Shown here one piece after another: positions 3,990 to 63,179 of a DNA stretch of 64,000 bases. A program made the position numbers and the translations under genes. Location: assembly GCA_015062495.1 (NCBI GenBank), contig SUUN01000002.1, positions 159,210 to 223,209 on the forward strand, read 5' to 3'. Under the pieces are notes generated by a model. That model did not search any database. It was not told the origin of the DNA and saw nothing but the letters and a program-made list of their open reading frames with translations. Each line of letters starts with the position of its first letter. Positions within the stretch are counted from its first letter, which is position 1. The stretch is from Alphaproteobacteria bacterium (GTDB taxonomy: Bacteria; Pseudomonadota; Alphaproteobacteria; Rs-D84).

Positions 3990-4095
3990 AAAACAAATTC
4001 CCCGACCATCGGGGAAAACTTATAAAAGCAATATCGCATAAATTAAATAAATTAAAGAACTTTCAAAACAAAGCCCCTAGCATCGGGGAAAAAAT

Positions 4096-4192
4096 TAAAG
4101 ATAATGGTATAGATAAACGGGTTGGAAATGGCGTAGTGTACAGAAGTTACATGAGCCATTGCCAACCCGATTTAGATATGCCATTAGATTTA
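4096..4192. repeat. hairpin repeat element, type A termini (MITE/REP-like), copy 1
   Basis: taaagataatggtatagata..cgggttgg..gtagtgtacagaagttacatgag..ccaacccg..agatatgccattagattta; imperfect inverted termini, self-complementary inner stems. Confidence 0.75.
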
Positions 4193-5089
4193 ATTTTTGT
4201 TCAGGTACAATATGGCGTCCATCCCCGCACTACACCCCGTCCCCACAGCCGTCGCAATCTGCATTTTCAAATTGCTGTGAACATCCCCTGCGACATACAT
4301 ACCCACCGGCAACGCATCCGGGGCCAGGCGTCCCAACGCATCGCGCTTGACCTCTTCGGTCAGATAGTCTGTGTTCGCTTCGTGTCCAATGGCGACAAAC
4401 AAACCATCGGCAACAATTTCCGCACCGTCGGTTGTCGTGATAATTAATTCACCATCGGCCGAATCTGGCTTTGCCGCAATTTTTGCCAAATCTGTATTAA
4501 ACAGGCATTCTATGTTATCGCGTGCCTCAACCCGTTCGCGCAGAACTGCCTCGGCCCGGGTGAACGCAGATTTACGATACACAATCTTAACCGTCTTGGC
4601 CAAATCTGCCAAATACAGCGCATCGTTCAGCGCACTATTACCGCCCCCCATAACAACAACGGTTTTACCACTGTAAAAGAAACCATCACACGTCGCGCAA
4701 TATGACACACCGCGCCCCATAAATTCACGCGCGCCTTCGATTTCCAACTTACGCGGGCTTGCCCCTGTGGCAATAATAATGGTTTTACCAACATATTCCG
4801 CGCCATTATCACATATAACTTTGTATCCTGATTCCGCATCGCCTGTGATATTCTTGGCCGAAACAAATTCAACCACCGCCCCAAATGTTTCGCACTGTTT
4901 TTTCATAAATTCCGCCAATTCAAACCCAGAACCGGCCCAACCTGGATAATTTTCCAATGTTGCAATACCCGCCATCTGGCCGCCCAGTCTGTCGCCACCC
5001 AAAACAATGGTCTTTTTATTTGCACGTGCGGTATACAACGCCGCCGTCAAACCCGCCGGCCCTGAACCTAAAATAATAACATCATACAT
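4190..5089 (-). CDS. trxB: thioredoxin-disulfide reductase
   Basis: start set at MYDVIILGSGPAGL (FAD GxGxxG); CATCDG redox motif; NADPH GGGNSA motif. Confidence 0.9.
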   Translation of the reverse strand: MYDVIILGSGPAGLTAALYTARANKKTIVLGGDRLGGQMAGIATLENYPGWAGSGFELAEFMKKQCETFGAVVEFVSAKNITGDAESGYKVICDNGAEYVGKTIIIATGASPRKLEIEGAREFMGRGVSYCATCDGFFYSGKTVVVMGGGNSALNDALYLADLAKTVKIVYRKSAFTRAEAVLRERVEARDNIECLFNTDLAKIAAKPDSADGELIITTTDGAEIVADGLFVAIGHEANTDYLTEEVKRDALGRLAPDALPVGMYVAGDVHSNLKMQIATAVGTGCSAGMDAILYLNKN

Positions 5090-5345
5090 GATAAAAGCCT
5101 TCCTTCTATATCCTTCGCGAAACAGATTACAAAACAAACGCCCCCAACGCAAACGAATTTATTGCGCAACCCCAAAAAAAGATTTATAATTAAAGTGATA
5201 TGAAATTCAGTTTTGTATTTTTCTCGTCTTTCTCGTCATCCCCGTTGGGGGAATAATTTAGCATACACTTTTTTGATTTTGTAATTGCGAAACTGTTCGC
5301 ACCATAATAACATATATCCCAAAGATAAATCGAAGGAACAAGAAA

Positions 5346-6892: not shown

Positions 6893-7690
6893 TTATTTCG
6901 CAACATAGCAATCCAGTCCATCAGACTTGGCATTACGACAGAACCCATTTGCATCCGCCGCCGTCTTGAACGCAACACGCAAACGATATGTTGTTTTACC
7001 ATCTTTTAACTGTGCCGCCAAGATTACAAACTGCTGCCCATCAAACAAACTTTTGTGTGCGTTCTGAATCTGACGCTGGGCGCTTTCCGCCAATGCACGC
7101 GTGCTGTACGAGCCAAATTGAACATACCACGCCCCCGCCACAGGTTTGGCAACTGTCTTTGCCACAGGCTTTGCCGCAGGTTTTGCTGCCGCCTTGGCAA
7201 CCGGCTTTGCTGCTGGCTTTGCCGCAGGTTTTGGTTGTGCCACAGGCTTTGATTCTGCAGTCGGATTAAACTTAACTTCTTTGCGTTCTTCTACGACGCG
7301 AACCGGCACGCCCGCCGTTGCTGCCACTGGTTGTGGCTGTACAACCGGCTGTGGTTTTGGCTGTGGTTGTGCAACCGGTTGTGGTTGAACCTGAACCGGC
7401 TGTGGTTGCGCCTGAACAGGCTGTACTGGTGGCATAACATTCATATCTGCGCCCTGTCCCGCATCTACAACAACCGGCGCGTCCAAATCCACTTCTATCG
7501 AAGACGAAGATTCATCACCAATCGCACGAATGATAACATAAGTTGCCAGCACGATAACAACCAAGCCAACACTTAACAGCAACCATGGTTTTTTTGGACG
7601 TGGCACCGCAAATGGCGTTGCATCTGGCAATGTATCCATTGCACCATTATCGTCCAGATCTAACAAATCCAAGCTATTATCATCATTCAT
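6893..7690 (-). CDS. SPOR domain-containing protein with Pro/Gln/Ala/Lys-rich low-complexity linker
   Basis: N-terminal TM; QPQPV and AKPAAKPVA tandem repeats; C-terminal SPOR fold (WYVQFGSYS...RLRVAF). Confidence 0.75.
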   Translation of the reverse strand: MNDDNSLDLLDLDDNGAMDTLPDATPFAVPRPKKPWLLLSVGLVVIVLATYVIIRAIGDESSSSIEVDLDAPVVVDAGQGADMNVMPPVQPVQAQPQPVQVQPQPVAQPQPKPQPVVQPQPVAATAGVPVRVVEERKEVKFNPTAESKPVAQPKPAAKPAAKPVAKAAAKPAAKPVAKTVAKPVAGAWYVQFGSYSTRALAESAQRQIQNAHKSLFDGQQFVILAAQLKDGKTTYRLRVAFKTAADANGFCRNAKSDGLDCYVAK

Positions 7691-8017: not shown

Positions 8018-9751
8018 TTACAACGGCATCTTAACACTATCTTGCATCATTTCAACGAATGCGTCCAGTGACATTGATTCCTGTTTTTCAACCCCCAACT
8101 TGCGCAGTGTGACATTTCTGTCTGCCATTTCTTTTTCACCAACAACGGCAATGATTGGCGTCTTGGCCAACGACAGTTCGCGGATTTTATAGTTGACCTT
8201 TTCGTCCCTCAAATCTGCGCGCGCATTCACACCGGCATTACGCAACATTTCAACAACTTCATTTGCGTAATCGGCATGTTTTTGCGAAATTGGTGTAACA
8301 ACAACCGGTTCTGGCGACAACCATAATGGCAAATTACCACCCGTTGATTCCAGCAATACGCCCATAAAGCGTTCAATAGAACCCAACATCGCACGATGCA
8401 ACATAATCGGACGATGTTTTTCACCATCTTCGCCGACATAGGACAGGTCAAATCTTTCCGGCAAATTCATATCCAATTGCACCGTACCGCACTGCCATAC
8501 GCGCCCCATAGAATCGCGCAGATAGTTATCAATCTTTGGACCATAGAACGCCGCATCTCCTTCGGCGATTTCATATTCAATCCCGTTCGCATCCAGGGCA
8601 TGCTTTAATGCGCCTTCGGCCTTGTCCCAGATTTCATCCGACCCGATACGGAATTCTGATTCTTTGCGCGTTGCCAGTTTCATGGTAATTTTATCAAATC
8701 CAAACTTGCCATAAATATCTTTGATAAAGCGCAGGATTTTAACCACTTCTTCTTCTAACTGTTCTTCGGTACAGAAAATATGCGCATCGTCCTGGGTAAA
8801 TTCACGCACACGCATCAGACCCGACAAACCGCCCGCCGCCTCATAACGATGAACCTTGCCAAATTCGGCCATATACAATGGTAAATCTTTGTACGAACGC
8901 AATCCATGCCCAAACACCAACATACCACCCGGGCATGACATTGGTTTGATACAGAACACTTTGCCATCCTGGGTTTTACCTGAATAGTTATGTTCACCAT
9001 ACTTTGCCCAGTGACCACTGCGTTCCCACAAACATCTGTCCATAACGGCCGGCGTTGAAATTTCCTGATAGCCTGCCCGTTCTTGGCGCGCACGTACATA
9101 TTCAATCAGACGGCGATACATCTTGTACCCCTTGTCGTGCCAGAAAACCGCCCCCGGCGCATATTCTGGCTCAAAGTGGAACAAATCCATATCCTTGCCC
9201 AATTTACGGTTATCGCGCGCGGCGGCCTCTTCCTGCATTTTCAGGAAATTATCCAATTCTTCGCGTGTTGCGAACGCATCAACATAGATACGCTGTAACA
9301 TTTTGTTTTTTGAATCCCCCTTCCAGTATGCACCGGCAACACTGCGGATTTTGAAACTGTCGCGTGGTAAATCCTTGGAACTTTCCACGTGTGGTCCACG
9401 ACACAGGTCAACAAAATCACGGAAAGTATAGATTGACAATGCTTCGCCCGCCGCATCATATTCGTTCAACCATTCCATTTTATATGGTTGGTCTGCAAAG
9501 ATTTCTTTGGCCTCGGCCAACGAAACATTTCTCTGTTCAAAACGGCCATTAGACTTAATTAAATCACGCATTTCCCGTTCGATTTTTTCAAAATCATCTT
9601 CGGAAAACCGATATTCCGTATCAAAGTCATAATAGAATCCATTTTCAATCGCCGGACCGCCCGCGAATTTAACATCTGGGTGTAATTTTTTAACCGCCGC
9701 CGCCATCACGTGTGCCAACGAATGACGCATTAACTCGATATCATATGCCAT
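8018..9751 (-). CDS. thrS: threonine--tRNA ligase (N-terminal TGS domain apparently absent)
   Basis: 577 aa; begins at editing domain (HSLAHVMAAAV); class II motifs and C-terminal anticodon-binding domain. Confidence 0.95.
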   Translation of the reverse strand: MAYDIELMRHSLAHVMAAAVKKLHPDVKFAGGPAIENGFYYDFDTEYRFSEDDFEKIEREMRDLIKSNGRFEQRNVSLAEAKEIFADQPYKMEWLNEYDAAGEALSIYTFRDFVDLCRGPHVESSKDLPRDSFKIRSVAGAYWKGDSKNKMLQRIYVDAFATREELDNFLKMQEEAAARDNRKLGKDMDLFHFEPEYAPGAVFWHDKGYKMYRRLIEYVRARQERAGYQEISTPAVMDRCLWERSGHWAKYGEHNYSGKTQDGKVFCIKPMSCPGGMLVFGHGLRSYKDLPLYMAEFGKVHRYEAAGGLSGLMRVREFTQDDAHIFCTEEQLEEEVVKILRFIKDIYGKFGFDKITMKLATRKESEFRIGSDEIWDKAEGALKHALDANGIEYEIAEGDAAFYGPKIDNYLRDSMGRVWQCGTVQLDMNLPERFDLSYVGEDGEKHRPIMLHRAMLGSIERFMGVLLESTGGNLPLWLSPEPVVVTPISQKHADYANEVVEMLRNAGVNARADLRDEKVNYKIRELSLAKTPIIAVVGEKEMADRNVTLRKLGVEKQESMSLDAFVEMMQDSVKMPL

Positions 9752-9971
9752 AATAAAAGCCTTTTTATATTTTATATTTTTTTAATTTGATTAACTGTTT
9801 GATTATAAGAATTTGTGCCACGCACCGCAATAGAATTTATACCCCCAACGGGGTTGTAGTAGTTGTTGTAAAGAATAAACCAAACATTTTCATAACACCA
9901 ATATTATTACCATCACCGCAAAAAGTCAATCGGTAATATCCCCTTGCGCTTGAGACAGAATAAACAAAAAT

Positions 9972-10049
9972 GTTTTAGATAAAAACAAAACCGACAACGC
10001 AGTGTACAGAAGCTACATAAGTTGTCGGTTTTGTTTTTAGATGAATTAT
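9972..10049. repeat. hairpin repeat element, type B termini, copy
   Basis: ttagataaaaacaaaaccgacaacgcagtgtacagaagctacataagttgtcggttttgtttttagatgaattatt. Confidence 0.7.
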
Positions 10050-10055
10050 TTTTGT

Positions 10056-10772
10056 TTATTCTGCGGCGGTGAACACCTTCTGAACATCATCATTGGCATC
10101 CAGCGCATCCACCAACTTTTCCAGTTTCGCATACGCTTCGTCGTCCAAATCCATTGGCATATTTGGCAACCATGTCAATTCTGCCTGTTCTGGTTCACCC
10201 AACACATCGGCCAGATATTTCTGTGCATTGACAAAGTCTTCTGGTTTGGTTGTGATGATAAATCCTTCTTCGGATGTTTCCAGATTATCGGCATTGGCCT
10301 CCATAATAATTTCCATCATTTCGTCTTCGGTTTTGCCGATTGATGCGGGGTACATAATCTGGCCTGCGCGTGTGAACATGAACACAACAGAACCTTCTTC
10401 GCCCATATTTCCGCCATTTTTGCCAAAGATATTGCGAATTTCCGGCACAGTACGACGTGGATTATCGGTCAATGCCTCTACAATCACCGGCACTGCACCC
10501 GGTCCATAACCTTCATAACGCACAGATTCGTAATTTTCTGTATTTGAACCCGATGCCTTGTCAATTGCGCGTTTGATATTGTCGTTCGGCATAGAATTCT
10601 TGCGCGCGGTTAAAATCGCCAAACGCAGGCGTGGATTGTTATCTGGATTTTTATCACCCAACTTTGCCGCCATGGTAATTTCACGCGCCAGTTTTGTAAA
10701 CAGCCCACTGCGTGCTGCGTCGGCTGCGCCCTTTTTATGCTGAATATTGTGCCATTTACTGTGTCCACTCAT
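10056..10772 (-). CDS. YebC/PmpR family DNA-binding transcriptional regulator
   Basis: 238 aa; MSGHSKWHNIQHKKG...; family signature throughout. Confidence 0.9.
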   Translation of the reverse strand: MSGHSKWHNIQHKKGAADAARSGLFTKLAREITMAAKLGDKNPDNNPRLRLAILTARKNSMPNDNIKRAIDKASGSNTENYESVRYEGYGPGAVPVIVEALTDNPRRTVPEIRNIFGKNGGNMGEEGSVVFMFTRAGQIMYPASIGKTEDEMMEIIMEANADNLETSEEGFIITTKPEDFVNAQKYLADVLGEPEQAELTWLPNMPMDLDDEAYAKLEKLVDALDANDDVQKVFTAAE

Positions 10773-14452: not shown

Positions 14453-15223
14453 ATGAAAATCTTGACCCTAAATATCAATTCTATCCGTGCACATATTGAA
14501 AGTTTTATCGACATCCTGCGTGGTGGCGAATACGACACAATCCTGGTCCAGGAATTAAAGGTTGAAACCGCCAATTTTCCCTACATGTTGCTCGATGAAT
14601 TTGGCTATAATGTCAAGGTTTTTGGCCAAAAATCCTGGAACGGCGTTGCGATTTTTTCTAAATATTCAATCGAAGACACCATACTTGGCATGCCAAATTA
14701 TGCCGATCCAAACGCCCGTTTTCTTGAATGCGTGATTGATGGTCGCGTGCGTGTTATCAACACATATATGCCAAATGGCGACACTGTGGATTCACCAAAA
14801 TTTCCATATAAATTGGAATGGATGCGCGCATTCACGGACTATATTTCCCAATACTTGGATTCCCCAGAACCCGTTATAATCGGCGGCGACTTTAATGTCG
14901 CAATCGAAGACCGCGACATCTGGAAACCAAAAAATTACGAAGGCATCGCCATTTCTGCCCCGGCGGCGCGCGCCATAATGAACGATTGGTTGAACGCGGG
15001 CTGGGTTGACGCATGGCGCGCCCTGCACCCAAATGACATTGATTACACATGGTACGGATATCGTGGCCGCGACACCGTTGGTAATAAACAGGGCCTGCGC
15101 CTGGATTATTTCCTGTGCAATAAAACAGCGGCAAAAATGATTAAGAATTGCGAAATCGATATCGAACCACGCCTAGCCTCTAAACCCACCGATCATTGTG
15201 GATTGATGCTGGAATTAAAATAG
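14453..15223 (+). CDS. xthA: exodeoxyribonuclease III
   Basis: start at MKILTLNINSIRAH with RBS aaaggaaagcaaacATG; EEP fold, C-terminal DHCGLMLEL. Confidence 0.85.
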   Translation: MKILTLNINSIRAHIESFIDILRGGEYDTILVQELKVETANFPYMLLDEFGYNVKVFGQKSWNGVAIFSKYSIEDTILGMPNYADPNARFLECVIDGRVRVINTYMPNGDTVDSPKFPYKLEWMRAFTDYISQYLDSPEPVIIGGDFNVAIEDRDIWKPKNYEGIAISAPAARAIMNDWLNAGWVDAWRALHPNDIDYTWYGYRGRDTVGNKQGLRLDYFLCNKTAAKMIKNCEIDIEPRLASKPTDHCGLMLELK

Positions 15224-15262
15224 TTCAAATCGCAACACCGCGAACCGATTGCGAAAAAAATA

Positions 15263-15357
15263 AAAGATAATGGTATAGATGCGCCGTGGTCGGCAAGCGT
15301 AGTGTACAGAAGTTACATGAGCGAACCGACCACAAGCAGATATGCCATTGGATTTTA
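15263..15357. repeat. hairpin repeat element, type A termini, copy 2a
   Basis: aaagataatggtatagatgcgccgtggtcggcaagcgtagtgtacagaagttacatgagcgaaccgaccacaagcagatatgccattggatttta. Confidence 0.75.
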
Positions 15358-15364
15358 TAAAATT

Positions 15365-15462
15365 AAAGATAATGGTATAGATATGGGATGGGGGCGACAT
15401 CGTAGTGTACAAACGCTACATGAGATGTCACCCCCGCCCATAGATATGCCATTAGATTTTAT
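15365..15462. repeat. hairpin repeat element, type A termini, copy 2b (tandem with 2a)
   Basis: core variant gtagtgtacaaacgctacatgag, flanked by gggatgggggcgacatc / gatgtcacccccgccc inverted stems. Confidence 0.75.
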
Positions 15463-15464
15463 TT

Positions 15465-17963
15465 TTAATCTTTAATGCGGGCTAAATCATCATACACCTT
15501 GTATTTCTGGTCACCTGTTTCGCGATATTCATATGCAGCCGCGCCCGCTGAATAGATATTAAACAATTCTGTTGTCTTATCGACCGCCATACGCATCATT
15601 TGGGCGGTTTGTTCCGCGTCATATTCAATCACCCGCGCGTCATTGTTTTTCAGTTGTAAAAACCGCATAATCGGCGCACGCGACAATGATGTTGTCTGAA
15701 TTGGAAAACCGCCCGACTGTAAAATATACGCCTCCAACGGTAATTGTGGCATATTGCCCTGCTCTAACTGGCTTTTTGATGGTGCGGCACCGGTCTTAAC
15801 ATCCATAACCCCACCATCCCATATGCGATCTGCGCGCGCACGCACATTGCGTCCCGCAATTTTAACGCACCCACCAATTTCCGCATACGCATTTTGAACG
15901 CTTGTCAATTCATTGGCAATAACCGGCGCAATTTCCAAGAACCGCTTATGCCAGAAATGAAATATCACACTGCCCGCGCCCAATTTTTCCAACGCCCGCC
16001 GATCCATTTCTGCGACCAATACGTCCGGGCGCAAATCCGTCGCATGTTCAATCACATCGTGAACCAGATTTCCAAAATCACGCGCATCAACCCCAACCCA
16101 ATAATCATCCAACACCCGCAACCGCAAAATATGTCGCACATAAAATGAATACGGATTATGAATCAAATGTTCTAACTCTGTCACATATACATCCGACCAA
16201 TCGGCGGGTGGCACAGGCGCAGAATAATCCAGCGGCCTATACGGCACATCATCACGCGCCAAAACCGCATCCAAAATTTCTGTATCCCGATTAAACACAC
16301 CCCGTCGCGCAATCACGCGTGATATAAAACGCGATTCTGTTGTCTGAACACCGCCGGACACACCCGACCGCAACCAATACACACACTTTCCACACGACAG
16401 ATTCATAAAATCCAGCGCCTGCAGGGACACTTTGCGATTTGGTGATGGCAACCCAATTTTTTCCGCCACCACACGTGGCAACCACGCATTTTCATACCCG
16501 CGCGATGGAAACATCCCTTCGTTCAGCCCCGTCAAAATCACAACATCCGCCGTCTGCATACGCGATTCAATTGTCCCCAGCACAACCACGTCTGCCCCAT
16601 CACGCATTGCACCACGTACCGACACGCCCGACAACGCATCTCCAACAAACGTGCGCGCATCCGACAATGTTAAATCTATCCCTGCCACATTCAGTGCATT
16701 TGACATATCGCGCAACGCCAACCAAATTTCCACATTATCATCCGCGACAAATTGTGGCTGAAACTGTGGCATATACAAATCCACAATCATCGCAATTGTA
16801 TTAAATAAATCATGATTATTTTCGGCATAGATTTTATCAAACGCATTTGATTTTTGTTCAATCCATGTATCTAATAAATTCAGAATCGCCCGCCCCTGTG
16901 CCGTCATCGTGCCGGGCACACCACCTGAAAAATCTGCATCCACACCACGTGCACGCAATGCCGCCGCAATACGCTGGTTTCCCGCCGCATCCGGCGTTAT
17001 CACCAACACAGATTTATTCTGCGCAACGGCACGCGCGGCAATTTCCGCAACCACGTCTGCCTCAACCCCTTCACGTGGAACAGTGACCAGGTGACAGTTT
17101 GATAAATCCGCATCTATATCACATGCCGCACAATCATTCCCAAATGCATAATTCATAAAATCTATTTTTGACGCCCCAACATCAATTGGCCGAACATCCC
17201 CCGCCCCTAACCCCAGGCGTGACAAGAACTTATATTCCGCATTGTACGGATTTGTATCTAATTCAAAGTCTTCCACGCGCCCCGCAATTTTCCCCGACAG
17301 GATAATCCGCCCATGTGGCGCGCGTGCAACAGATTCCATCAAATCGGCTGTGGCGGGCACACTGGCGGTTGATGCGCAGACAATCACCAATTTATATTTA
17401 TCCAGTTGATTTGCCCATGCATGAATATCGCGATTTCGCGCCGCAACCGCCGTAATTCGCCCCCCCGCATACTTATCCATAAATCCTGACAAAATCCCCA
17501 GGATTTTTGCCTTGCTTTGAAAATGTGTGGCATATTTTTCATCAACCAACGACGCCCAATCTATTGTTGCTGCATCCACCCCTTCGTTTTCCATATAGTC
17601 CTGCATACGCACCAAATCATGGGCCACAGACAATGCGGTCGTCAAATTTCCCACATTTGCGTCCGCCGCCAACAATCGGGTTAAAATCGCAACACGTTCA
17701 ACATTTAAAATAATATCCGGGGAATTTTCTGTATCATCTGCATCTTCGTCCACCCCTTCGCCCAGTGCAACCAAACGTGGCAAAATTGCCACCCCACCCG
17801 ACCGTTCCGCAATCATTTTTTCGACCGTGCGCACAGCGCGCCGACTGGGCAGAAATATCAGCATGTCTGCCACATCCACCCCAGATTCCACCATAACACG
17901 CCACAGCGCATCCGCCATCCGCGCCGGATTTGTCGCATAAAAGATATTGTTATTTAATGCCAA
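15465..17963 (-). CDS. AddB-like double-strand break repair nuclease (PD-(D/E)XK family), no adjacent AddA
   Basis: 832 aa; C-terminal RecB-type nuclease signature (ARADRIWDGGVMDVKTGAAPS). Confidence 0.6.
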   Translation of the reverse strand: MALNNNIFYATNPARMADALWRVMVESGVDVADMLIFLPSRRAVRTVEKMIAERSGGVAILPRLVALGEGVDEDADDTENSPDIILNVERVAILTRLLAADANVGNLTTALSVAHDLVRMQDYMENEGVDAATIDWASLVDEKYATHFQSKAKILGILSGFMDKYAGGRITAVAARNRDIHAWANQLDKYKLVIVCASTASVPATADLMESVARAPHGRIILSGKIAGRVEDFELDTNPYNAEYKFLSRLGLGAGDVRPIDVGASKIDFMNYAFGNDCAACDIDADLSNCHLVTVPREGVEADVVAEIAARAVAQNKSVLVITPDAAGNQRIAAALRARGVDADFSGGVPGTMTAQGRAILNLLDTWIEQKSNAFDKIYAENNHDLFNTIAMIVDLYMPQFQPQFVADDNVEIWLALRDMSNALNVAGIDLTLSDARTFVGDALSGVSVRGAMRDGADVVVLGTIESRMQTADVVILTGLNEGMFPSRGYENAWLPRVVAEKIGLPSPNRKVSLQALDFMNLSCGKCVYWLRSGVSGGVQTTESRFISRVIARRGVFNRDTEILDAVLARDDVPYRPLDYSAPVPPADWSDVYVTELEHLIHNPYSFYVRHILRLRVLDDYWVGVDARDFGNLVHDVIEHATDLRPDVLVAEMDRRALEKLGAGSVIFHFWHKRFLEIAPVIANELTSVQNAYAEIGGCVKIAGRNVRARADRIWDGGVMDVKTGAAPSKSQLEQGNMPQLPLEAYILQSGGFPIQTTSLSRAPIMRFLQLKNNDARVIEYDAEQTAQMMRMAVDKTTELFNIYSAGAAAYEYRETGDQKYKVYDDLARIKD

Positions 17964-22224: not shown

Positions 22225-22252
22225 ACACCCCGCCAACCGGCGGGTTTTTTTT
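22225..22252 (+). terminator. rho-independent terminator after BOF gene
   Basis: caccccgccaaccggcgggtttttttt. Confidence 0.75.
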
Positions 22253-22267
22253 ATAATAAATTAAAAT

Positions 22268-22366
22268 AAAAGATAATGATATAGATACGGGATAGGGGCG
22301 ACATCGTAGTGTACAGAAGTTACATGAGATGTTGCCCCCGCCCGTAGATATGCCATTAGATTTTAT
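22268..22366. repeat. hairpin repeat element, type A termini, copy 3a
   Basis: aaagataatgatatagatacgggataggggcgacatcgtagtgtacagaagttacatgagatgttgcccccgcccgtagatatgccattagatttta. Confidence 0.75.
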
Positions 22367-22377
22367 TGAAAATAAAT

Positions 22378-22463
22378 TAGAATGATTTAGATAAAAACAA
22401 ATCAGGCATCGTAGTGTACAGACGCTACATGAGATGCCCGAATTGTTTTTAGATGAATTATTA
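22378..22463. repeat. hairpin repeat element, type B termini, copy 3b (tandem with 3a)
   Basis: tagaatgatttagataaaaacaaatcaggcatcgtagtgtacagacgctacatgagatgcccgaattgtttttagatgaattatta. Confidence 0.7.
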
Positions 22464-22467
22464 TAAT

Positions 22468-22893
22468 TTATTTTGCCTGTTTCTGTTCGTATAACTGGGC
22501 AAAGTCCACCGGCTGCATCGCAAATGTTGGGAAACCGGATTCTGATGTCAAACGTGTAATCAGGGCACGAACCGCTGGGAACAATAATGTTGGAACATCA
22601 ATCAACAGTGTACGTTTTTTCGCTTCTTCGTCTTTTTCTTCTTCCATCTGGACCAGACCTGAATATGTTGATTCAATCAGGAATATTGATTTATCACCCT
22701 GCTCTAACTTTGAATGAACCTTGGTAATCAAATCAACCATGAACAAGTTGTTTTCTGCACCCTTGATTTGAATATCGATATTGATTTCTAATTTAGCCTG
22801 ACCGTTATCGGACTTAAAGAACAATTCTGGTACATTTGGGCTTTCGAACGAAATGTCTTTTAGAAACTGTGAAATGATATTAAATTTTGCCAT
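22468..22893 (-). CDS. secB: protein-export chaperone SecB
   Basis: 141 aa; MAKFNIISQFLKDISFESPN... SecB-like throughout. Confidence 0.9.
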   Translation of the reverse strand: MAKFNIISQFLKDISFESPNVPELFFKSDNGQAKLEINIDIQIKGAENNLFMVDLITKVHSKLEQGDKSIFLIESTYSGLVQMEEEKDEEAKKRTLLIDVPTLLFPAVRALITRLTSESGFPTFAMQPVDFAQLYEQKQAK

Positions 22894-25163: not shown

Positions 25164-25206
25164 ATATTATCCCTTTGATATAAAAATGTACCCTTGCACA
25201 AAAAAT

Positions 25207-25304
25207 AAAAAATAATGGTATAGATACGGGATGGGGGCGACATCATAGTGTACAGAAGTTACATGAGATGTTGCCCCCGCCCGTAGATACGCCATTAGAT
25301 TTTA
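25207..25304. repeat. hairpin repeat element, type A termini, copy 4
   Basis: ataatggtatagatacgggatgggggcgacatcatagtgtacagaagttacatgagatgttgcccccgcccgtagatacgccattagatttta. Confidence 0.75.
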
Positions 25305-25307
25305 TTT

Positions 25308-25838
25308 TTATTTCAACGGGGGGAAACAGTCGCCACTACCCTCTTTCGGACAGCACGCAAACACCGTATTCCCCAAATCCTTGAACACTTCATCGCCACA
25401 GCACCCAAATTTATTGGGCTGACTGCCATCGGCGCACAGCCCCGCATCCAGATTGGCTAATTCCTGTTCCAACTCTATCATCGGGTCAATTTCCACAACA
25501 TCTTGCTGAACCACAGATTCTACCTCTGGCGATTCTTGGACGACATCCTCTACAACAGTCGATACCTCTTCGGGTGCGGCGGTCACTTCAACAACTATCC
25601 GCGCTTCCCCAGACGTCCGACGCCCACGCGCAGATTTCGTACACGTACGACGATATTCCGCCTTTAATTTTGTCAGTTCTGCCGTCTCGGCTTCTGTTGG
25701 TTCATCTATTTTACCAATTTCAGACACCCGCGCCGATATGTCTGCGCAACTCATCCTCTCTGACACAACCTGGCCTGCGCCATCGGCAAACGCCCCCGAC
25801 ACAAAGCAACTTAACATTAAAGTAAAAAGTAATTTCAT
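25308..25838 (-). CDS. secreted cysteine-rich protein (CC-x-CC family), paralog 2 with acidic linker
   Basis: signal peptide, acidic VxE-rich linker, C-terminal FGCCGDEVFKD...FACCPKEGSGDCFPPLK homologous to paralog 1. Confidence 0.55.
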   Translation of the reverse strand: MKLLFTLMLSCFVSGAFADGAGQVVSERMSCADISARVSEIGKIDEPTEAETAELTKLKAEYRRTCTKSARGRRTSGEARIVVEVTAAPEEVSTVVEDVVQESPEVESVVQQDVVEIDPMIELEQELANLDAGLCADGSQPNKFGCCGDEVFKDLGNTVFACCPKEGSGDCFPPLK

Positions 25839-34460: not shown

Positions 34461-34706
34461 TCATTTCCAAAAATGTTTTTTTGCGAATGCGTATCCTGAG
34501 CCAGTTTTAAGATATCGTTCAAATTCTAATGCCGCATCTTTTGAACTAAATGCAAAATAATTTACCAATTCCCAAGGTTTATATTTTGCTGTATGTATTG
34601 AATATCCCGCATTATGTTGCTTTAGTCGTTTCTTTAAATCATCTGTTTGACCGATGTATTTTTGTTCTGGATTGGAAATACTTTTTATAAGATAAACATA
34701 AAACAT
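34461..34706 (-). CDS. GIY-YIG nuclease family small protein (YhbQ-like), copy 1
   Basis: 81 aa; MFYVYLIKS...KYIGQTDDLKKRLKQHN = GIY-YIG core. Confidence 0.7.
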   Translation of the reverse strand: MFYVYLIKSISNPEQKYIGQTDDLKKRLKQHNAGYSIHTAKYKPWELVNYFAFSSKDAALEFERYLKTGSGYAFAKKHFWK

Positions 34707-36246: not shown

Positions 36247-36885
36247 TTATTCCGCGCCCTTTTTCATCAGGGACTGCACCGCCAACGGGAAATCAGCCGC
36301 CCGCGCCAGATATGATCCCGACACCAACAAATCCGCCCCCGCATCCCAGCATAACTGGGCGGTACTTTCATTAATTCCACCATCAACCGAAATCGTAAAC
36401 TGCAACCCATACTTTTTACGCGTTCCTGCCAACACTGAAATCTTGTGCAACGCCCCCGGATCAAAGGCCTGTCCCGCTGCCCCTGGCGCGACTGCCATTA
36501 CCATTACCTCGTCAATCTCGCGCAGGATTGGCTTTAACAACGAAACATTTGAATCTGGATGCAACGCCACCCCCACCCGACGACCCGCCGCCCGAACATT
36601 TCGAACCGCGGTCTTTAACCCAGATGTATTGGTTGACAATATCACCGTATCCGCCCCAGCTGCAATCGCGTCCGCCGCCCAGACAACGGGACTCTCGGTC
36701 ATCAGATGAACATGTAAATGCGCATTTGTTCGCGCCCTAATATTTTTTAATTCATCAATTCCACCTGCAATTCTGTCAACATAGAACCCATCCATAATAT
36801 CGATATGAATCATTGAAATCCCGCCCGCCCGAAACATTGAATACGTTTCGGCCCGTTGCATATCAAAACATAAACTGCTGGGCAT
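36247..36885 (-). CDS. rpe: ribulose-phosphate 3-epimerase (in frame with upstream ftsA, no intervening stop)
   Basis: from internal Met MPSSLCFDMQRAETYSMF...; TIM-barrel motifs HVHLM, VDGGI; 212 aa. Confidence 0.8.
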   Translation of the reverse strand: MPSSLCFDMQRAETYSMFRAGGISMIHIDIMDGFYVDRIAGGIDELKNIRARTNAHLHVHLMTESPVVWAADAIAAGADTVILSTNTSGLKTAVRNVRAAGRRVGVALHPDSNVSLLKPILREIDEVMVMAVAPGAAGQAFDPGALHKISVLAGTRKKYGLQFTISVDGGINESTAQLCWDAGADLLVSGSYLARAADFPLAVQSLMKKGAE

Positions 36886-38025
36886 AATTGGGACAAATTT
36901 CTGAACCTTTTTCTGCTTTTTTCTAAACAATTTCCCAATCCAGTTTGTACGTCGCACCCACCGGTCGTGCCGTGCGATATACCTTTGACGTTGTGCACCC
37001 TGCCCCCGCCAAACATAATCAGACAACGCACGCACAGTTGCGTCCACCGGCAACACTTCGGTCATAACTGCGAACGCATTTTCAATAAAGTCACGCAAAC
37101 CTTCGATTTCTGCCCCACCCCCGGTCAGGATAATTTTTGTTGGCCGATATTTTGTAAAGGACGGCAAACATTGATCTTTCAGTTGTCCAATAATATCAAC
37201 CAATATCGGCAACACAACATCATTTACATCCCCGCGCGAAAAATCATATGCCCGGTCGGCGGGCGCAAACCGATCCATTTCCTTGGGCACCAATGATGCA
37301 ACCGCCCGCTTAATCCGGTCGGCAGAATCAAAATCTATATTCAGTTTTTCTACAATTGCATTTGTAATGTCTGTCCCACCCCGCTGAATTTTGGTATGCC
37401 ACACTGGCCCACGATCCGTCCAAATCGACGCAGCCGTAAATTGCGCCCCAAAATCAATAAACAGTGTTGTCTGTTTTTCCGCGCGACAAATCGCGTTTTG
37501 AACAAACTGTGGGTCAAACAAAGCGTCCGCCTGAATATGTGCACCGCGCAAATGTTCAAAAACAGCATCCACCCCGTCACGCGAATAAAAAATCACCCCA
37601 AAAGCAGAAATCAATTGTCGATCAACATGTCCAATTGGCGTCACCATATTTCGTGCCTGTGGCGCATCATATCGCAGTGGCACAATATGCATTGGGAAAA
37701 AACCATCCGCCGGCACAATCTGGGCAATCTGATTTCTGACATCGGTTGGCGATATCTTGTGCTCTCCGCCCCAAACTGTACTTTTTGCGCACATTTCATA
37801 TTTTGAAACACCAAAATTACCGGTAATATACGCTGAATCAAAATGTGTTCCAATCTGTTTTTCCAACTCGTCCACCACAGACTTGATTGCGAACACAGTG
37901 TCATAACTGTCCATTGCAAAGAACGCCGACTTGTCAATTCGTGCACTGCGCACACGATGTGCGATACCACGTACACCATACGTGCCAATATCCAGACACA
38001 AAAAAGACGAATCAAACAAATTCAT
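36886..38025 (-). CDS. ftsA: cell division protein FtsA-like (actin fold), reading through into rpe
   Basis: phosphate-1 LCLDIGTYGVRG, phosphate-2 IDFGAQFTAAS, adenosine ILTGGGAEIEGL; C-terminal amphipathic helix NWIGKLFRKKQKK; directly downstream of ftsQ. Confidence 0.7.
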
Positions 38026-46423: not shown

Positions 46424-46663
46424 TCAAAAGAATTTCTTTTGAAATATTCTACCATTACCTGTTTTAAGAAAAATTTCAAAATTCCGTGCTTTCTCTTCAC
46501 TATCAAACGCCACATACCCATGCAGGGTCCATGGTTTAAATTTATTGGTATATATCGATTTTCCATCATTATGTTCTTTTAAGCGCCTTTTTAAATCACC
46601 TGTGCAACCAACATAAAAACGTTCTGGGAAATTTATACTTCGCAAAAGATAAACATAAAACAT
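46424..46663 (-). CDS. GIY-YIG nuclease family small protein (YhbQ-like), copy 2
   Basis: MFYVYLLRS...FYVGCTGDLKRRLKEHN; paralog of 34461-34706. Confidence 0.7.
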   Translation of the reverse strand: MFYVYLLRSINFPERFYVGCTGDLKRRLKEHNDGKSIYTNKFKPWTLHGYVAFDSEEKARNFEIFLKTGNGRIFQKKFF

Positions 46664-46744
46664 CAAAAAGTCCGCTTTCATTCACTACGTTCATTACAGC
46701 GCGACATCCGTTTCTCTAACCCTACACCTTCGCTTGATTTTATT

Positions 46745-49085: not shown

Positions 49086-49191
49086 AAACCCCTTTCAAAT
49101 AAATGTCTCTCTAAGCATAAAACACAAACAAAACAAACACAAGAATTTATACCTGCCACAAAAACCGCCACACGGGCTGTTTGAATTCTGA

Positions 49192-49233
49192 TAGCAGCGG
49201 AGGGATTCGGACCCCCGACCAAAGGATTATGAT
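49192..49233 (-). other. 3'-half fragment of tRNA-Met (attL-like direct repeat of islet)
   Basis: tagcagcggagggattcggacccccgaccaaaggattatgat: 42/42 identical to 53879-53920 (anticodon loop to discriminator); 5' half absent. Confidence 0.75.
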
Positions 49234-53847: not shown

Positions 53848-53873
53848 TAAAAAATCCCGGTTAACCGGGAAAT
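53848..53873 (-). terminator. rho-independent terminator immediately 3' of tRNA-Met
   Basis: minus strand: tcccggttaaccgggatttttt. Confidence 0.7.
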
Positions 53874-53875
53874 TC

Positions 53876-53950
53876 TGGTAGCAGCGGAGGGATTCGGACC
53901 CCCGACCAAAGGATTATGATTCCTCTGCTCTACCACTGAGCTACGCTGCC
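53876..53950 (-). tRNA. tRNA-Met (anticodon CAT; elongator type; tRNA-Ile2 not excluded), 75 nt, CCA encoded
   Basis: GGCAGCGTAGCTCAGTGGTAGAGCAGAGGAATCATAATCCTTTGGTCGGGGGTCCGAATCCCTCCGCTGCTACCA; anticodon stem GAGGA/TCCTT lacks the initiator 3xGC. Confidence 0.85.
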
Positions 53951-56787: not shown

Positions 56788-57471
56788 TTACCATTCTATC
56801 GGTGTTTCACCACAACTTTCCAGATATTGATTTGCGCGACTGAAATGTTTATTTCCAAAAAATCCACGATACGCCGACAGCGGTGACGGATGCGCACTTT
56901 TCAGCACCAGGTTTTTTTCCGGATTTACAAACGCTGCTTTTTTCTGGGCATAACTGCCCCACAGCATATAGACAATATTATCACGCGCACTAACCGCACT
57001 AATAACCGCGTCTGTAAATTCTTCCCATCCACGGCCTGCGTGCGATGCCGCTGCATGTGCCTGAACGGTTAATGTCGCATTTAACAATAACACGCCCTGG
57101 TTTGCCCAATGTGTCAAATCACCATTTGTAACCGATTTTCGCCCCAGGTCTGATTCAATCTCTTTATAAATATTTTGCAACGATGGCGGGATTGGCGTCG
57201 GTGGCAACACTGAAAAACAAAGTCCATGCGCCTGGCCTGGTTCATGATATGGATCTTGCCCGATGATTACAACTTTAACCTTATCCAACGGACACAAATT
57301 AAACGCATTAAAAATATTCTGTGGCGCAGGATACACCGTTTTCCCAGACAAATATTCCCCACGCACAAAGTCTGTTAATTTGATAAAATAATCCTTATCA
57401 AATTCCGCACCCAACGCATCTTTCCAAGATTGTTCAATTTTCACATTCATAGTTCTATCAACCTCAATCAA
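56788..57471 (-). CDS. ung: uracil-DNA glycosylase
   Basis: GQDPYH water-activating loop, HPSPLS motif. Confidence 0.9.
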   Translation of the reverse strand: MIEVDRTMNVKIEQSWKDALGAEFDKDYFIKLTDFVRGEYLSGKTVYPAPQNIFNAFNLCPLDKVKVVIIGQDPYHEPGQAHGLCFSVLPPTPIPPSLQNIYKEIESDLGRKSVTNGDLTHWANQGVLLLNATLTVQAHAAASHAGRGWEEFTDAVISAVSARDNIVYMLWGSYAQKKAAFVNPEKNLVLKSAHPSPLSAYRGFFGNKHFSRANQYLESCGETPIEW

Positions 57472-57488
57472 CTTTAAAATTAATTATA

Positions 57489-57630
57489 TCGCTACATGAC
57501 CGACGGTTTGTACAAGTAATCGTCCATACTTTTTTTTAAATTAATTTATATGAGATGAGTACGCCGCACAAACCAAAGGGAGTGTACCACTCGCTACATG
57601 ACCAGCGGTTTGTGCAAGCAATCGTCCATA
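57489..57630. repeat. two 40-bp direct repeats (57489-57528, 57591-57630) flanking a spacer with core-like AGTGTAC...GCTACATGA motif
   Basis: tcgctacatgaccgacggtttgtacaagtaatcgtccata / tcgctacatgaccagcggtttgtgcaagcaatcgtccata. Confidence 0.65.
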
Positions 57631-58265
57631 GAAATTAATTTTACCTGACAAGATTTCCATAACACCACATCTATATACCCACGCGGCAATCCGGTCTGTG
57701 CTACCAAATGCGCAAACATATCATCGCATGCACATTTTACATCCGGTGATAATTTAGCATTATCAATCAGCAAATTTTTCCCAACAAACGCACACCCCAG
57801 TCGCTGAATCCAAATATCATATTTCACAACATCTTCGCCCAGATTTCGCGCCAAATGATTTGCTGTTATTTTTCCAACATGTGGTAATTTTTGCAAAAAA
57901 TTTAATTTATCATCCAGTAATTCTAATTTGTAATATTCCCCGCGCAACTGTTCCCGATTTTCCCATATTTTACAAATCGCATTAATTTTATTTTTGTTGT
58001 TAAAAATTTTTATCAGTGCATCAAAATCTGCCCCGGCTGAATCTAAAACATTCATAATTTTTTCATGAATTTTTTTTGCTGTTTTTTGTGAAAACCCACC
58101 CGCCAGAATTACATAAGCACAGTGCCCCGCGAACGCATCTGCATCATAAATTTTTCGCGCACGCAGGTTTTCCAAAATCTCATCAAAACTTTGCGCATCA
58201 CTGTCCAACCCCGCATCACGCAGTCGCGCATCTAAACAAAAAAACCAATCCCGCGAAAAATCCAT
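57594..58265 (-). CDS. hypothetical protein with helix-hairpin-helix motif (DNA glycosylase-like?)
   Basis: LPHVGKITANHLARNLGE HhH-GPD-like segment; 3' end overlaps the direct repeat. Confidence 0.4.
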   Translation of the reverse strand: MDFSRDWFFCLDARLRDAGLDSDAQSFDEILENLRARKIYDADAFAGHCAYVILAGGFSQKTAKKIHEKIMNVLDSAGADFDALIKIFNNKNKINAICKIWENREQLRGEYYKLELLDDKLNFLQKLPHVGKITANHLARNLGEDVVKYDIWIQRLGCAFVGKNLLIDNAKLSPDVKCACDDMFAHLVAQTGLPRGYIDVVLWKSCQVKLISMDDCLHKPLVM

Positions 58266-61912: not shown

Positions 61913-62011
61913 CGCTTTTTTAGCGCGCTATTCCTAGCAGTGGGGTAAAAAATAAAGATAATGGTATAGATGCGCTCAAAACCACAACCTCTTGCGGTGG
62001 AAAAAATTAAA

Positions 62012-62097
62012 TAGAATGATTTAGATACGAGATGGGGGTGACAACGTAGTGTACAAAAGTTACATGAGTTGTCGCCCCCGCTCGTAGATGAATTATT
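62012..62097. repeat. hairpin repeat element, type B termini, copy (preceded by partial type-A left end at 61954-61975)
   Basis: tagaatgatttagatacgagatgggggtgacaacgtagtgtacaaaagttacatgagttgtcgcccccgctcgtagatgaattatta. Confidence 0.7.
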
Positions 62098-62108
62098 ATA
62101 TTTAATTT

Positions 62109-63179
62109 TTATGATAATACGCTTGTAATCTGGTCCTGCATCTGAAACGTCCCCAATACAACCCAGGCGATTATTGCAGACACCAACAAAATTCCCAAAC
62201 TGTTTAATGTGCTGGAAATCTTTTCCATTTTGCGCACTGATTCATTCAAATAATCATTTGCAACCTGATTCAGATTTTCATCAAATTCGTTCATATCGGC
62301 ATAAATTGTCAAATCCCCAATAATTTCAGAATCCGGGAAATCACGTCCAGTGTGCGCCAATGCCCGCCCCAGGTTTTCACCATTTGCAATATACTTTAAC
62401 GCGCGTTCTAAAATACTTTTCAGATATCTGTTTGCACTGTCCGCCAGCATTCGCATCGCATCCGGAATTGTAACACCGGCACTGACCATTGCGCCCAAAC
62501 TCATCAACCAACCAACCGACACTTGGATTTTATAAACATTCCACGGCGGTAATTTATCAAACATTGCGCGCAATCGTCCCGACCAGTTTGCCAGACTTAT
62601 CCATACAACCGCAACAACGGACGCAAACACAACCAAGAATATATACCAATATTCAATCGCAAAATCCGACAACCACACCAGTGATCGCGCCGACCCGCGC
62701 CAAACAACATCGTTTCCTGCGATTTCTGCCAACGGTGGCACCAAATACAACCCCACCATAATGATAATACCGAACGTCAACGCCAACAAAAACATTGGAT
62801 ACCCAATCGCAGACGCCATTGCACGTTTTATCCGTTGTGTTCCATCAACAACGCGCCCAACATTTTCCAACGCCACGACCAGGTTTGATAAATTCCCCGA
62901 TGTCACCAACAACGTTTCATTTTCTGGCACCCAACCGCGCGTCGCTTCGGAAAAAGTCATACCGCGTTCCAGATTCTTTTGCCATTCGCGCATCACAATT
63001 GCAAACGGTTCACGCGGTTTTGTACCATTGTGTGATTCAACCATTTCCAATCGTTCCAGCGCATCAATCAATGTAAAATCATTACGCAACAGCGACGCCA
63101 ATTTTCGACAAATTGACATACGCTTTTCCGTATTTAACCGGAACATCATTTTTGCATATAATAATTCCAGTTTATTCAT
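62109..63179 (-). CDS. type II secretion / type IV pilus platform protein (GspF/PilC family)
   Basis: 356 aa; 3 TM segments; GspF-like cytoplasmic domains. Confidence 0.7.
   Translation of the reverse strand: MNKLELLYAKMMFRLNTEKRMSICRKLASLLRNDFTLIDALERLEMVESHNGTKPREPFAIVMREWQKNLERGMTFSEATRGWVPENETLLVTSGNLSNLVVALENVGRVVDGTQRIKRAMASAIGYPMFLLALTFGIIIMVGLYLVPPLAEIAGNDVVWRGSARSLVWLSDFAIEYWYIFLVVFASVVAVVWISLANWSGRLRAMFDKLPPWNVYKIQVSVGWLMSLGAMVSAGVTIPDAMRMLADSANRYLKSILERALKYIANGENLGRALAHTGRDFPDSEIIGDLTIYADMNEFDENLNQVANDYLNESVRKMEKISSTLNSLGILLVSAIIAWVVLGTFQMQDQITSVLS

Follow-up and report, generated by a model that had tools for sequence, protein, structure and literature searches.

A previously undescribed family of hairpin repeats occupies gene 3′ ends in a 64,000-nt stretch of DNA from an Alphaproteobacteria bacterium (GCA_015062495.1, contig SUUN01000002.1, positions 159,210-223,209, forward strand), which is referred to as the window hereafter. 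Each unit of ~105 nt forms a single long hairpin around a 23-nt core, GTAGTGTACARAMGYTACATGAG, and the family is confined to uncultured gut Alphaproteobacteria, Candidatus Enterousia of the order Rs-D84. The copies belong together by sequence and by covariation in their stems; they come and go at orthologous gene ends, where they stand in the place of terminators, occur in tandem arrays, undergo recombination at the core, and keep to a strict polarity of position and orientation. In my assessment there is about an even chance that they are non-autonomous DNA hairpin elements of the REP/REPIN kind, spread via single-stranded DNA and reused as gene 3′ ends. From these observations I infer a single-strand mechanism, the stop codon TAA as its target, and a part of the hairpin in terminating or stabilising transcripts.

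Copies of the repeat and their distribution

When counted with up to two mismatches, the core was found eight times in the window (starting at 4133, 9999, 15299, 15402, 22306, 22411, 25245, and 62046), in 8/8 cases on the + strand, and 100 shuffles returned no match at all. A repeat finder retrieved the same units with their inverted-repeat arms, and folding of the eight copies gave z-scores from -8.7 to -12.9. A covariance model (R1), built on 114 complete copies from many species, assigned 74-123 bits to the eight full copies and additionally picked up a decayed copy (57531-57649, 29 bits) and a right-half copy (57470-57530). The eight full copies listed by the initial annotation of this DNA were all recovered in place, its partial left end at 61954-61975 proved to be real and is what remains of a unit that lay upstream of copy 8, and its two terminus types, A and B, are present as described; its tally was incomplete by the decayed and the half copy. 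The window has a density of 8-10 copies per 64 kb, and every copy is intergenic:

Copy 1, 4085..4204, + strand: type A arms, core 4133-4155, 113.8 bits
Copy 2, 9951..10069, + strand: atypical old arms, core variant GCAG...ATAAG at 9999-10021, 101.1 bits
Copy 3, 15251..15352, + strand: type A, first of a tandem pair, core 15299-15321, 74 bits
Copy 4, 15353..15472, + strand: type A, core 15402-15424, 123.2 bits
Copy 5, 22257..22362, + strand: type A, core 22306-22328, 90.6 bits
Copy 6, 22363..22481, + strand: type B, core 22411-22433, 116.1 bits
Copy 7, 25196..25315, + strand: type A, core variant ATAG... at 25245-25267, 111.2 bits
Right-half copy, 57470..57530, + strand: 3′ half of the core and right arm, direct repeat of 57591-57630
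Decayed tenth copy, 57531..57649, + strand: core GGAGTGTACCACTCGCTACATGAC, 29.1 bits
Solo left end, 61954..61975, + strand: type A arm, followed by a CTTGC-type module
Copy 8, 61997..62116, + strand: type B, core 62046-62068, 121.8 bits

More than 250 copies were retrieved from other assemblies. An exact-pattern scan that used one genome per species returned at least 120 genome stretches with the core, and the 120 listed all belong to Candidatus Enterousia or to uncultured alphaproteobacterial metagenome-assembled genomes from the animal gut, and a scan of metagenomes added 83 further stretches. Genomes of Ca. Enterousia measure 0.75-1.0 Mb with a coding density of ~90% (PMC12306168), and extrapolation from the density in the window gives ~100 copies per genome. 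A search of Rfam with the window yielded no match at the gathering threshold and only chance-level matches to miRNA and XIST at E<=10, the viral contigs searched contained no match to the family, and a full-text literature search for the core sequence found no paper containing it. Three metagenome stretches (L147, L158, and L206) hold the core-like GTAGTGTACA...TACATGAG in very different flanks, in one case inside an open reading frame (ORF) of 1593 aa, and they could either have arisen by chance or be distant relatives outside Enterousia.

Anatomy and covariation of the hairpin

The anatomy of the element was read from an alignment (A1) of the 114 complete copies in core-sense orientation. 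From the left, an A-rich outer arm is followed by AGAT, a middle stem of 8-10 nt that is of type A or B, a second AGAT, an inner stem of 17-19 nt, and the core, after which the right half mirrors the left parts and terminates in a T-rich arm. AGAT reads in the same sense in the left and the right arm, all eight bases are invariant, and in the folded core-sense strand AGAT/AGAT makes two tandem G.A/A.G bubbles, which are C.U bubbles on the other strand. The 17-19 bp of the inner stem are variable yet complementary. The apex is invariant: GTAG precedes a mini-hairpin of 5 bp (TGTAC/GTACA, with a single bulged base) that closes a loop of 4 nt, and TGAG follows, the last G of which pairs with the base before the core; within the apex, only the loop and the bulge vary. 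The core can accordingly be written as GTAG plus TGTAC-ARAM-G(N)TACA, with the 5-bp stem unchanged in 114 copies and GTAG present in most of 189 cores (GCAG and ATAG are minor variants). The initial annotation had drawn GTAG opposite GYTAC instead; this pairing is broken in several core variants, namely by G or A at core positions 13 and 15 and by GATG variants, and the GTAG/YTAC fold was rejected in favour of the invariant 5-bp stem. Many copies possess an extra module of ~20 nt to the left of the left arm, either ACCCAACCCCTTGC-N-GGGG or GTGATTAGCG, and arrays often comprise several left-half units (module, left arm, inner left stem, core, and ~5-12 nt) and then one complete unit beside the gene.

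RNAalifold predicted 29 pairs from the 114 copies, and 21 of these showed changes on both sides; alignment columns 49/74, for example, are GC in 38 copies, AU in 33, UA in 25, and CG in 14. The fraction of paired cells was 94.0%, compared to 76.0% in shuffles and ~31-40% when the partner column was slid, and double-changed cells numbered 708 compared to 259 in shuffles. Selection on structure is clear from these values. They bear out the earlier claim that the arms of the inner stem differ among copies and nevertheless stay complementary, and they place the covariation above chance level; compensatory changes no commoner than chance were what the initial annotation had named as refuting its proposal. 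Snap-back or copy-back synthesis of an arm was considered as a source of the matching arms and excluded, since the AGAT/AGAT mismatches and the fixed G.T pairs are passed on unchanged in all copies.

Two loci, L083 (core-sense start ~2302) and L037 (~1819), show a core that is capped by a stem of the native spacer gttcaaatcgcaac and its inverted duplicate, with a partial direct duplicate further left. This site is orthologous to positions 15220-15260 of the window, and the arrangement is a fold-back style rearrangement at the element.

Placement, polarity and turnover at gene ends

The position of the elements was surveyed for 185 cores in 134 clusters from the window and the genome loci, and 103 of the clusters were flanked by called genes to the left and right. 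The gene on the 3′ side of the element (in core sense) lay on the opposite strand in 99/103 clusters, at a median distance of 0, while the other neighbour was convergent in 56 and co-directional in 43 of these 99; within the window, 4/6 sites are convergent and 2/6 co-directional. The earlier statement that copies sit almost only between convergent gene ends holds for the 56 clusters and fails for the 43, and what stays constant is an opposite-strand stop codon at the T-rich arm. This stop codon is found 33-45 nt from the core, i.e. inside or at the end of the T-rich arm, and it is TAA at 108/114 copies compared to 74% in long ORFs generally, a count that spans non-independent orthologous sites and element ends fixed only to ~5 nt. 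Exceptions to the rule of position were mostly artefacts of ORF calling, and the remainder were flipped-core copies in L015, L085, and L094. Tandem arrays accounted for 38/134 clusters, and core orientation was mixed in only 1/38 arrays.

The three flipped copies (L015:5147-5265; L094, ~2224, - strand; L085, ~706, - strand) have the core inverted within otherwise normal arms. The copy in L015 is the one between yebC and proS and is orthologous to window 9951-10069. Such copies demonstrate that recombination between the arms can turn the apex around.

The individual copies in the window illustrate how closely element and gene end are fitted together. The T-rich right arm of copy 1 contains the TAA stop of a thioredoxin-reductase-like gene (4190-5152, - strand), and that of copy 6 contains both the TAA stop and the last codon of secB (22468-22893, - strand). 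Copy 4 adjoins the TAA stop (15465-15467) of addB (15465-17963, - strand), and copy 8 that (62109-62111) of a T2SS-F gene (62109-63179, - strand). The two co-directional sites are those of copy 2, which is flanked by the end of yebC (10056-10772, - strand) and the start of proS (8018-9751, - strand) and has an arm reaching 5 nt into yebC, and of copy 7, which lies between two - strand genes and adjoins the stop of 25308-25838. Copy 5 follows downstream of an ordinary terminator (22229-22244) that belongs to a + strand BOF gene. The adjoining genes in the window (thioredoxin-reductase-like, yebC, addB, secB, one of unknown function, and T2SS-F) have no function in common, which counts against a regulon. 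The decayed copy at 57531-57649 is the only one in the window that is read into by an ORF: 57594-58265 (- strand) runs through its right arm and reaches a TAG stop inside the core, and the copy, as mechanically annotated, appears to supply the last ~18 codons. The orthologous copy in L124 is intact.

Two small hairpins lie beyond the left arm of copy 1:

4075..4089, - strand: small GC hairpin CCCCGATGCTAGGGG followed by CTTTGTTTT, just past the left arm of copy 1
3998-4016, - strand: second small hairpin, called as a terminator in a terminator scan

The first of these is terminator-like, as the end of the trxB transcript; for hairpins as long as the element itself, the promoter and terminator scanner is uninformative. 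Between the two small hairpins, CCCCGACCATCGGGG (4000-4014) and CCCCTAGCATCGGGG (4075-4089), the region 4000-4095 also contains aaattaaagaac, a remnant that resembles the start of a left arm, while the orthologous region in L068 has one hairpin only, directly adjoining the element. Remnant and single hairpin together suggest that a second unit was deleted in the window.

Orientation was equally regular over longer distances. Neighbouring clusters within a locus were co-oriented in 12/13 cases, the sole exception being a flipped core, even though the opposite strand encodes ~34% of the genes nearby, hundreds of whose 3′ ends are unoccupied. GC skew at third codon positions was used to separate the effect of the coding strand from that of the replication strand: genes encoded on the core-sense strand had a value of -0.27 and those on the opposite strand one of +0.375, and the sign was constant in 84/84 loci, with the core-sense strand being the C-rich one. 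Among the window genes checked, skew was negative for 12/12 on the + strand and positive for 12/12 on the - strand, and the skew of the + strand as a whole ranged from -0.10 to -0.26 over the full length of the window. The metagenome stretches served as an independent set, in which the polarity agreed in 80/83 and 44/46 cases. The GTAG strand is always the C-rich, A-rich (lagging-type) strand, and the adjoining gene is always a leading-strand gene. Polarity of this strictness means that a gene-linked RNA function alone cannot account for where the elements are placed. The strand asymmetry is in itself very strong for a bacterium, with a skew of ~+0.2 to +0.6 for - strand genes and of -0.06 to -0.40 for + strand genes.

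Comparison of orthologous sites revealed a lively turnover. The addB site carries 2, 1, or 0 copies among syntenic loci of 72-86% identity, and 116 gene-proximal copies are distributed over only ~35 gene ends with 0-3 copies per site. The same site can be filled by different subfamilies in different species (type A or B, with unrelated inner stems), and hybrids of left and right halves joined at the core make up ~5-8/114 complete copies. No target duplication was visible in pairs of filled and empty alleles, and the element begins directly after the stop codon, as for instance in L054 '...ggcat/TTAatc' compared to the window '.../aaaaaaataaaagat...gattttattt/TTAatc' (junctions marked by a slash). 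For five sites, a canonical terminator composed of an A tract, a GC hairpin, and a T tract directly follows TAA in the empty allele, and the element takes this place in the filled one; where the genes are co-directional, an empty allele has a spacer of ~20 nt. A and T tracts also border the hairpin of the element, the stem of which is rich in AU beside the U tract and contains G.A or C.U bubbles. The earlier label of a MITE/REP-like hairpin repeat under structural selection is supported by the number of copies, by their varying presence and copy number at orthologous sites, and by the strong stem covariation. The position at stop codons, the replication polarity, and the 0-3 copies at orthologous sites with terminators in the empty ones are features that the initial annotation had missed.

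Candidate origins and roles of the element

If the elements are of the REP/REPIN kind, copies would spread or persist via a replication-coupled step in single-stranded DNA, during which a protein would read the folded hairpin with its GTAG apex and thereby fix the orientation relative to the fork. By analogy, such a protein might be of the HUH Y1 type known from REP and IS200/IS605, or a tyrosine recombinase of the kind that acts on folded attC or CTX DNA. Landing after TAA on the G-rich strand would leave a copy behind a leading-strand stop codon, where the long hairpin with its A and U tracts could replace the intrinsic terminator or serve as a 3′ stabiliser, as REPs do. There is no terminator between stop codon and element, so the element would be transcribed as the end of the mRNA. 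The covariation of the stem would then reflect the need for a hairpin, be it for propagation or for the 3′-end function, rather than a dedicated gene for a structured RNA.

REPs carry GTAG 5′ of the foot of a small palindrome, which is read on one strand only (PMC3333891; PMC8266576), group-3 REPs go down to a 10-nt palindrome with a 4-nt loop, and the REPs of E. coli require conserved mismatches in the stem (PMC3333891, PMC8266576, PMC3116915). The elements described here resemble REPs, BIMEs, and REPINs as high-copy extragenic palindromes at gene 3′ ends with GTAG directly 5′ of a small imperfect palindrome, in their many, often clustered extragenic copies including tandem clusters, in their compensatory stem changes and long persistence in one lineage, and in the roles proposed for REPs as terminators or as stabilisers of mRNA 3′ ends (PMC3333891, PMC8266576, PMC3116915). 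They differ in that the GTAG mini-hairpin forms the apex of an outer hairpin of ~45 bp, and in that the orientation is bound to replication and to a leading-strand stop codon. IS200/IS605 elements transpose in a strand-specific, replication-coupled, and target-specific manner without duplication (PMC5027513), and the likeness here extends to a strand-specific hairpin with a 4-nt guide 5′ of its foot, to an orientation that follows the fork, and, as far as ends placed to ~5 nt allow, perhaps to placement beside a short fixed sequence with no visible target duplication (PMC5027513). However, IS200/IS605 elements have two different subterminal hairpins at their left and right ends and a cognate tnpA, whereas the present element is a single palindrome with mutually paired ends, and neither distinct end hairpins nor, in the sampled DNA, a tnpA were found.

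Several observations weigh against a REP/REPIN-like element that spreads through single-stranded DNA and is reused at gene ends. Each hairpin contains one core and not a REP paired with an inverted REP, so that the two inverted REPs of a typical unit are missing, and tandem units are direct and not inverted as in REPINs and BIMEs. If the GTAG strand is the active one, its location is on the leading-strand template, whereas IS608 uses the lagging-strand template; the polarity may therefore mirror the survival of copies in an inactive orientation and not the direction of insertion. Element ends can only be placed to ~5 nt, as the A/T tracts of the elements overlap with those of the terminators they replaced, and the AU-rich, mismatched outer stem would, judged by its base composition and pairing, not make a textbook intrinsic terminator, in which a U tract comes immediately after a GC-rich stem. 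Finally, neither the window nor ~1.5 Mb of loci centred on the elements yielded a Y1 transposase, a RAYT, or any other transposase, in a weak search by motif and query sequence.

In the same vein, PF01797 was absent among the annotated window genes, a RAYT as known from REP systems was not found in the sampled DNA (again a weak search), and no tnpA or tnpB was found in the element-centred loci searched by motif and tblastn (likewise weak). A known IS200/IS605 end set with a nearby tnpA, which the initial annotation had listed as evidence that would speak against it, did not turn up in these searches. Small GIY-YIG proteins were considered as mobilisers and rejected, as each is a single orthologue in conserved synteny and shows no connection to the elements. 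These two paralogues of ~80 aa are 57% identical and encoded at 34461-34706 (-) and 46424-46681 (-), each just downstream of a tRNA gene (tRNA-Gln and tRNA-Thr, respectively) and with similar 5′ regions (repeat D17), and their orthologues are found at the same place in L026 and L060.

It is possible, if rather doubtful, that the elements represent a distinct class of single-stranded DNA hairpin whose orientation is set by the fork, which homes to sites after leading-strand TAA codons and has assumed terminator or 3′-end duties at ~100 genes of a sub-megabase genome, and which would use an enzyme that is neither RAYT nor of the IS200 type, or be retained as a host system following the loss of its enzyme.

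A structured RNA is an unlikely explanation. Here, the element would be a hairpin in the 3′ untranslated region or a small RNA, with a dedicated RNA-binding protein or nuclease recognising its apex and G.A bubbles, and with stems maintained by selection for RNA pairing. The strong covariation would fit, as would the co-transcription with the adjoining gene that follows from the lack of an intervening terminator, and the core-sense strand has RNA-like motifs in its tandem G.A pairs, its invariant G.U, and a GUA/GA internal loop. A possible likeness of this loop to sarcin-ricin or K-turn motifs was set aside. The + strand also folds better than the - strand by ~7-19 kcal/mol as RNA (8 copies), and as DNA the advantage is 2.5-6.7 kcal/mol (4 copies). 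This difference stems from features shared by whole subfamilies, namely the G.A bubbles, G.U pairs at four positions of the middle and outer stems, and the one invariant apical G.U, and such fixed features favouring the core sense fit single-stranded DNA as well as RNA. The mRNA of the adjoining gene, however, would carry the reverse complement of the core, in which the motifs become C.U and A.C mismatches, and for transcription in core sense, 43/99 sites lack an upstream gene of the same sense. An internal sigma-70 promoter for a core-sense RNA (CCCCTTGCA as -35, GATAAT or TAGAAT in the left arm as -10) was rejected for its spacing, which varies from 14 to 17 nt, and further for the GTGATTAGCG-type modules, which have no -35 element; moreover, the left arm covaries with the right arm and thus belongs to the folded strand, which excludes a promoter within it. 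The initial annotation had taken G-U pairing as a hint of a fold at the RNA level, but a wobble bias is absent from the sporadic mismatches of 98 distinct inner stems (67 G.T compared to 77 A.C), and a clear RNA-specific signature is not supported. A purely RNA-level function also leaves the absence of copies behind lagging-strand genes unexplained, and Rfam, as stated above, gave no match.

Equally improbable are host terminator modules, that is, oversized bidirectional terminators that spread by recombination or gene conversion in concerted evolution, with no transposition involved. The elements occupy the exact place of canonical terminators at orthologous sites within a common frame of A tract and T tract, the same ~35 gene ends are used across species, and the hybrids testify to recombination at the core, all of which agrees with such modules. 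On the other hand, types A and B and unrelated inner stems interchange at one and the same site, where homology is confined to the A/T tracts, and copies also occur in operon-like co-directional pairs, whose empty alleles are the ~20-nt spacers with no terminator (cluster 131). Terminators have no need of an invariant 23-nt apex, AGAT bubbles, or replication polarity either.

I consider it still less probable that the elements are substrates of a tyrosine recombinase, in the manner of attC or the attP of CTX phage and possibly via the host Xer system. The architecture does recall that of attC sites such as the Vibrio VCRs, which immediately follow an ORF as imperfect palindromes of 60-140 nt, with conserved ends, unpaired spacers or bubbles, a variable complementary centre, strand-specific folding, and uniform orientation relative to replication; placement at gene 3′ ends with overlap of stop codons points the same way, and a XerD-like recombinase is encoded at 2016-2867 in the window. 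But the arms lack the R and L boxes of attC (RYYYAAC...GTTRRRY), the apex is invariant where the tip of attC is variable, and the genes concerned are syntenic core housekeeping genes and not cassette arrays, with no integron integrase (intI) seen. By my own estimate, the arms resemble the XerD arm of dif no more than expected by chance, and this link was rejected.

A MITE of the classical type, which a DDE transposase would mobilise in trans through its double-stranded inverted-repeat arms, is very improbable: terminal inverted repeats of ~20 nt, a size of ~105 bp, many copies, and polymorphic sites are set against filled and empty pairs with no visible target-site duplication, a 100% polar orientation that is unexpected for a symmetric inverted-repeat element, four AGAT motifs that are direct and not inverted and hence make the two ends non-equivalent in duplex DNA, and the lack of any transposase in the searches described above.

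By description, other bacterial repeats are similar in hairpin size and in proliferation. Rickettsia palindromic elements (RPEs) are hairpin repeats of 100-150 nt that spread in a small alphaproteobacterial genome and are typically inserted in frame within genes, and Correia elements are hairpin repeats that act as terminators or processing sites, with TA duplications and in both orientations. RPE, Correia, and ERIC-type repeats have no known transposase and occasionally become part of an ORF end, and none has been reported to be strictly replication-polar or to adjoin stop codons.

Apart from the repeats, three features of the window were recorded. The 3′ end of a tRNA-Met gene (53871-53920) is duplicated with 98% identity at 49184-49233, and the two copies bracket ~4.7 kb of low G+C content (36% in the 48-56 kb bin compared to ~44-46% elsewhere) that encode an AAA_15/AAA_21 ATPase (51572-52885) as well as ORFs that match no family; the segment 49184-53920 has the appearance of a small island integrated at a tRNA gene, possibly a defence island. 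An unusual fusion is encoded at 36247-38025 (- strand), where a product of 592 aa has precomputed Pfam matches to FtsA and ribulose-phosphate 3-epimerase domains. Six to seven tandem 12-nt repeats (TTTGCCGCAGGC-like) lie at 7134-7233 within the ORF of a SPOR-domain protein (6893-7690, - strand), the length of which varies among close relatives (265 aa compared to 249 aa in L001 and L002).

How the common small palindromic repeats such as REP, RPE, and Correia spread, and why hosts keep them, is debated. The family described here provides a clean case, in which a tiny, gene-dense genome tolerates an extrapolated number of at least 100 copies with absolute orientation relative to replication, precise placement after stop codons, and natural filled and empty alleles in which the element stands in for an ordinary terminator. 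The core and the covariance model are a ready marker for genomes of Ca. Enterousia and Rs-D84, and a caution for gene callers arises from ORF ends that run into the elements. If the polarity reflects the mechanism of spread, REP-like elements would be tied directly to the processing of single-stranded DNA coupled to the fork, and if it reflects selection, it would gauge the cost of a hairpin on one of the two template strands.

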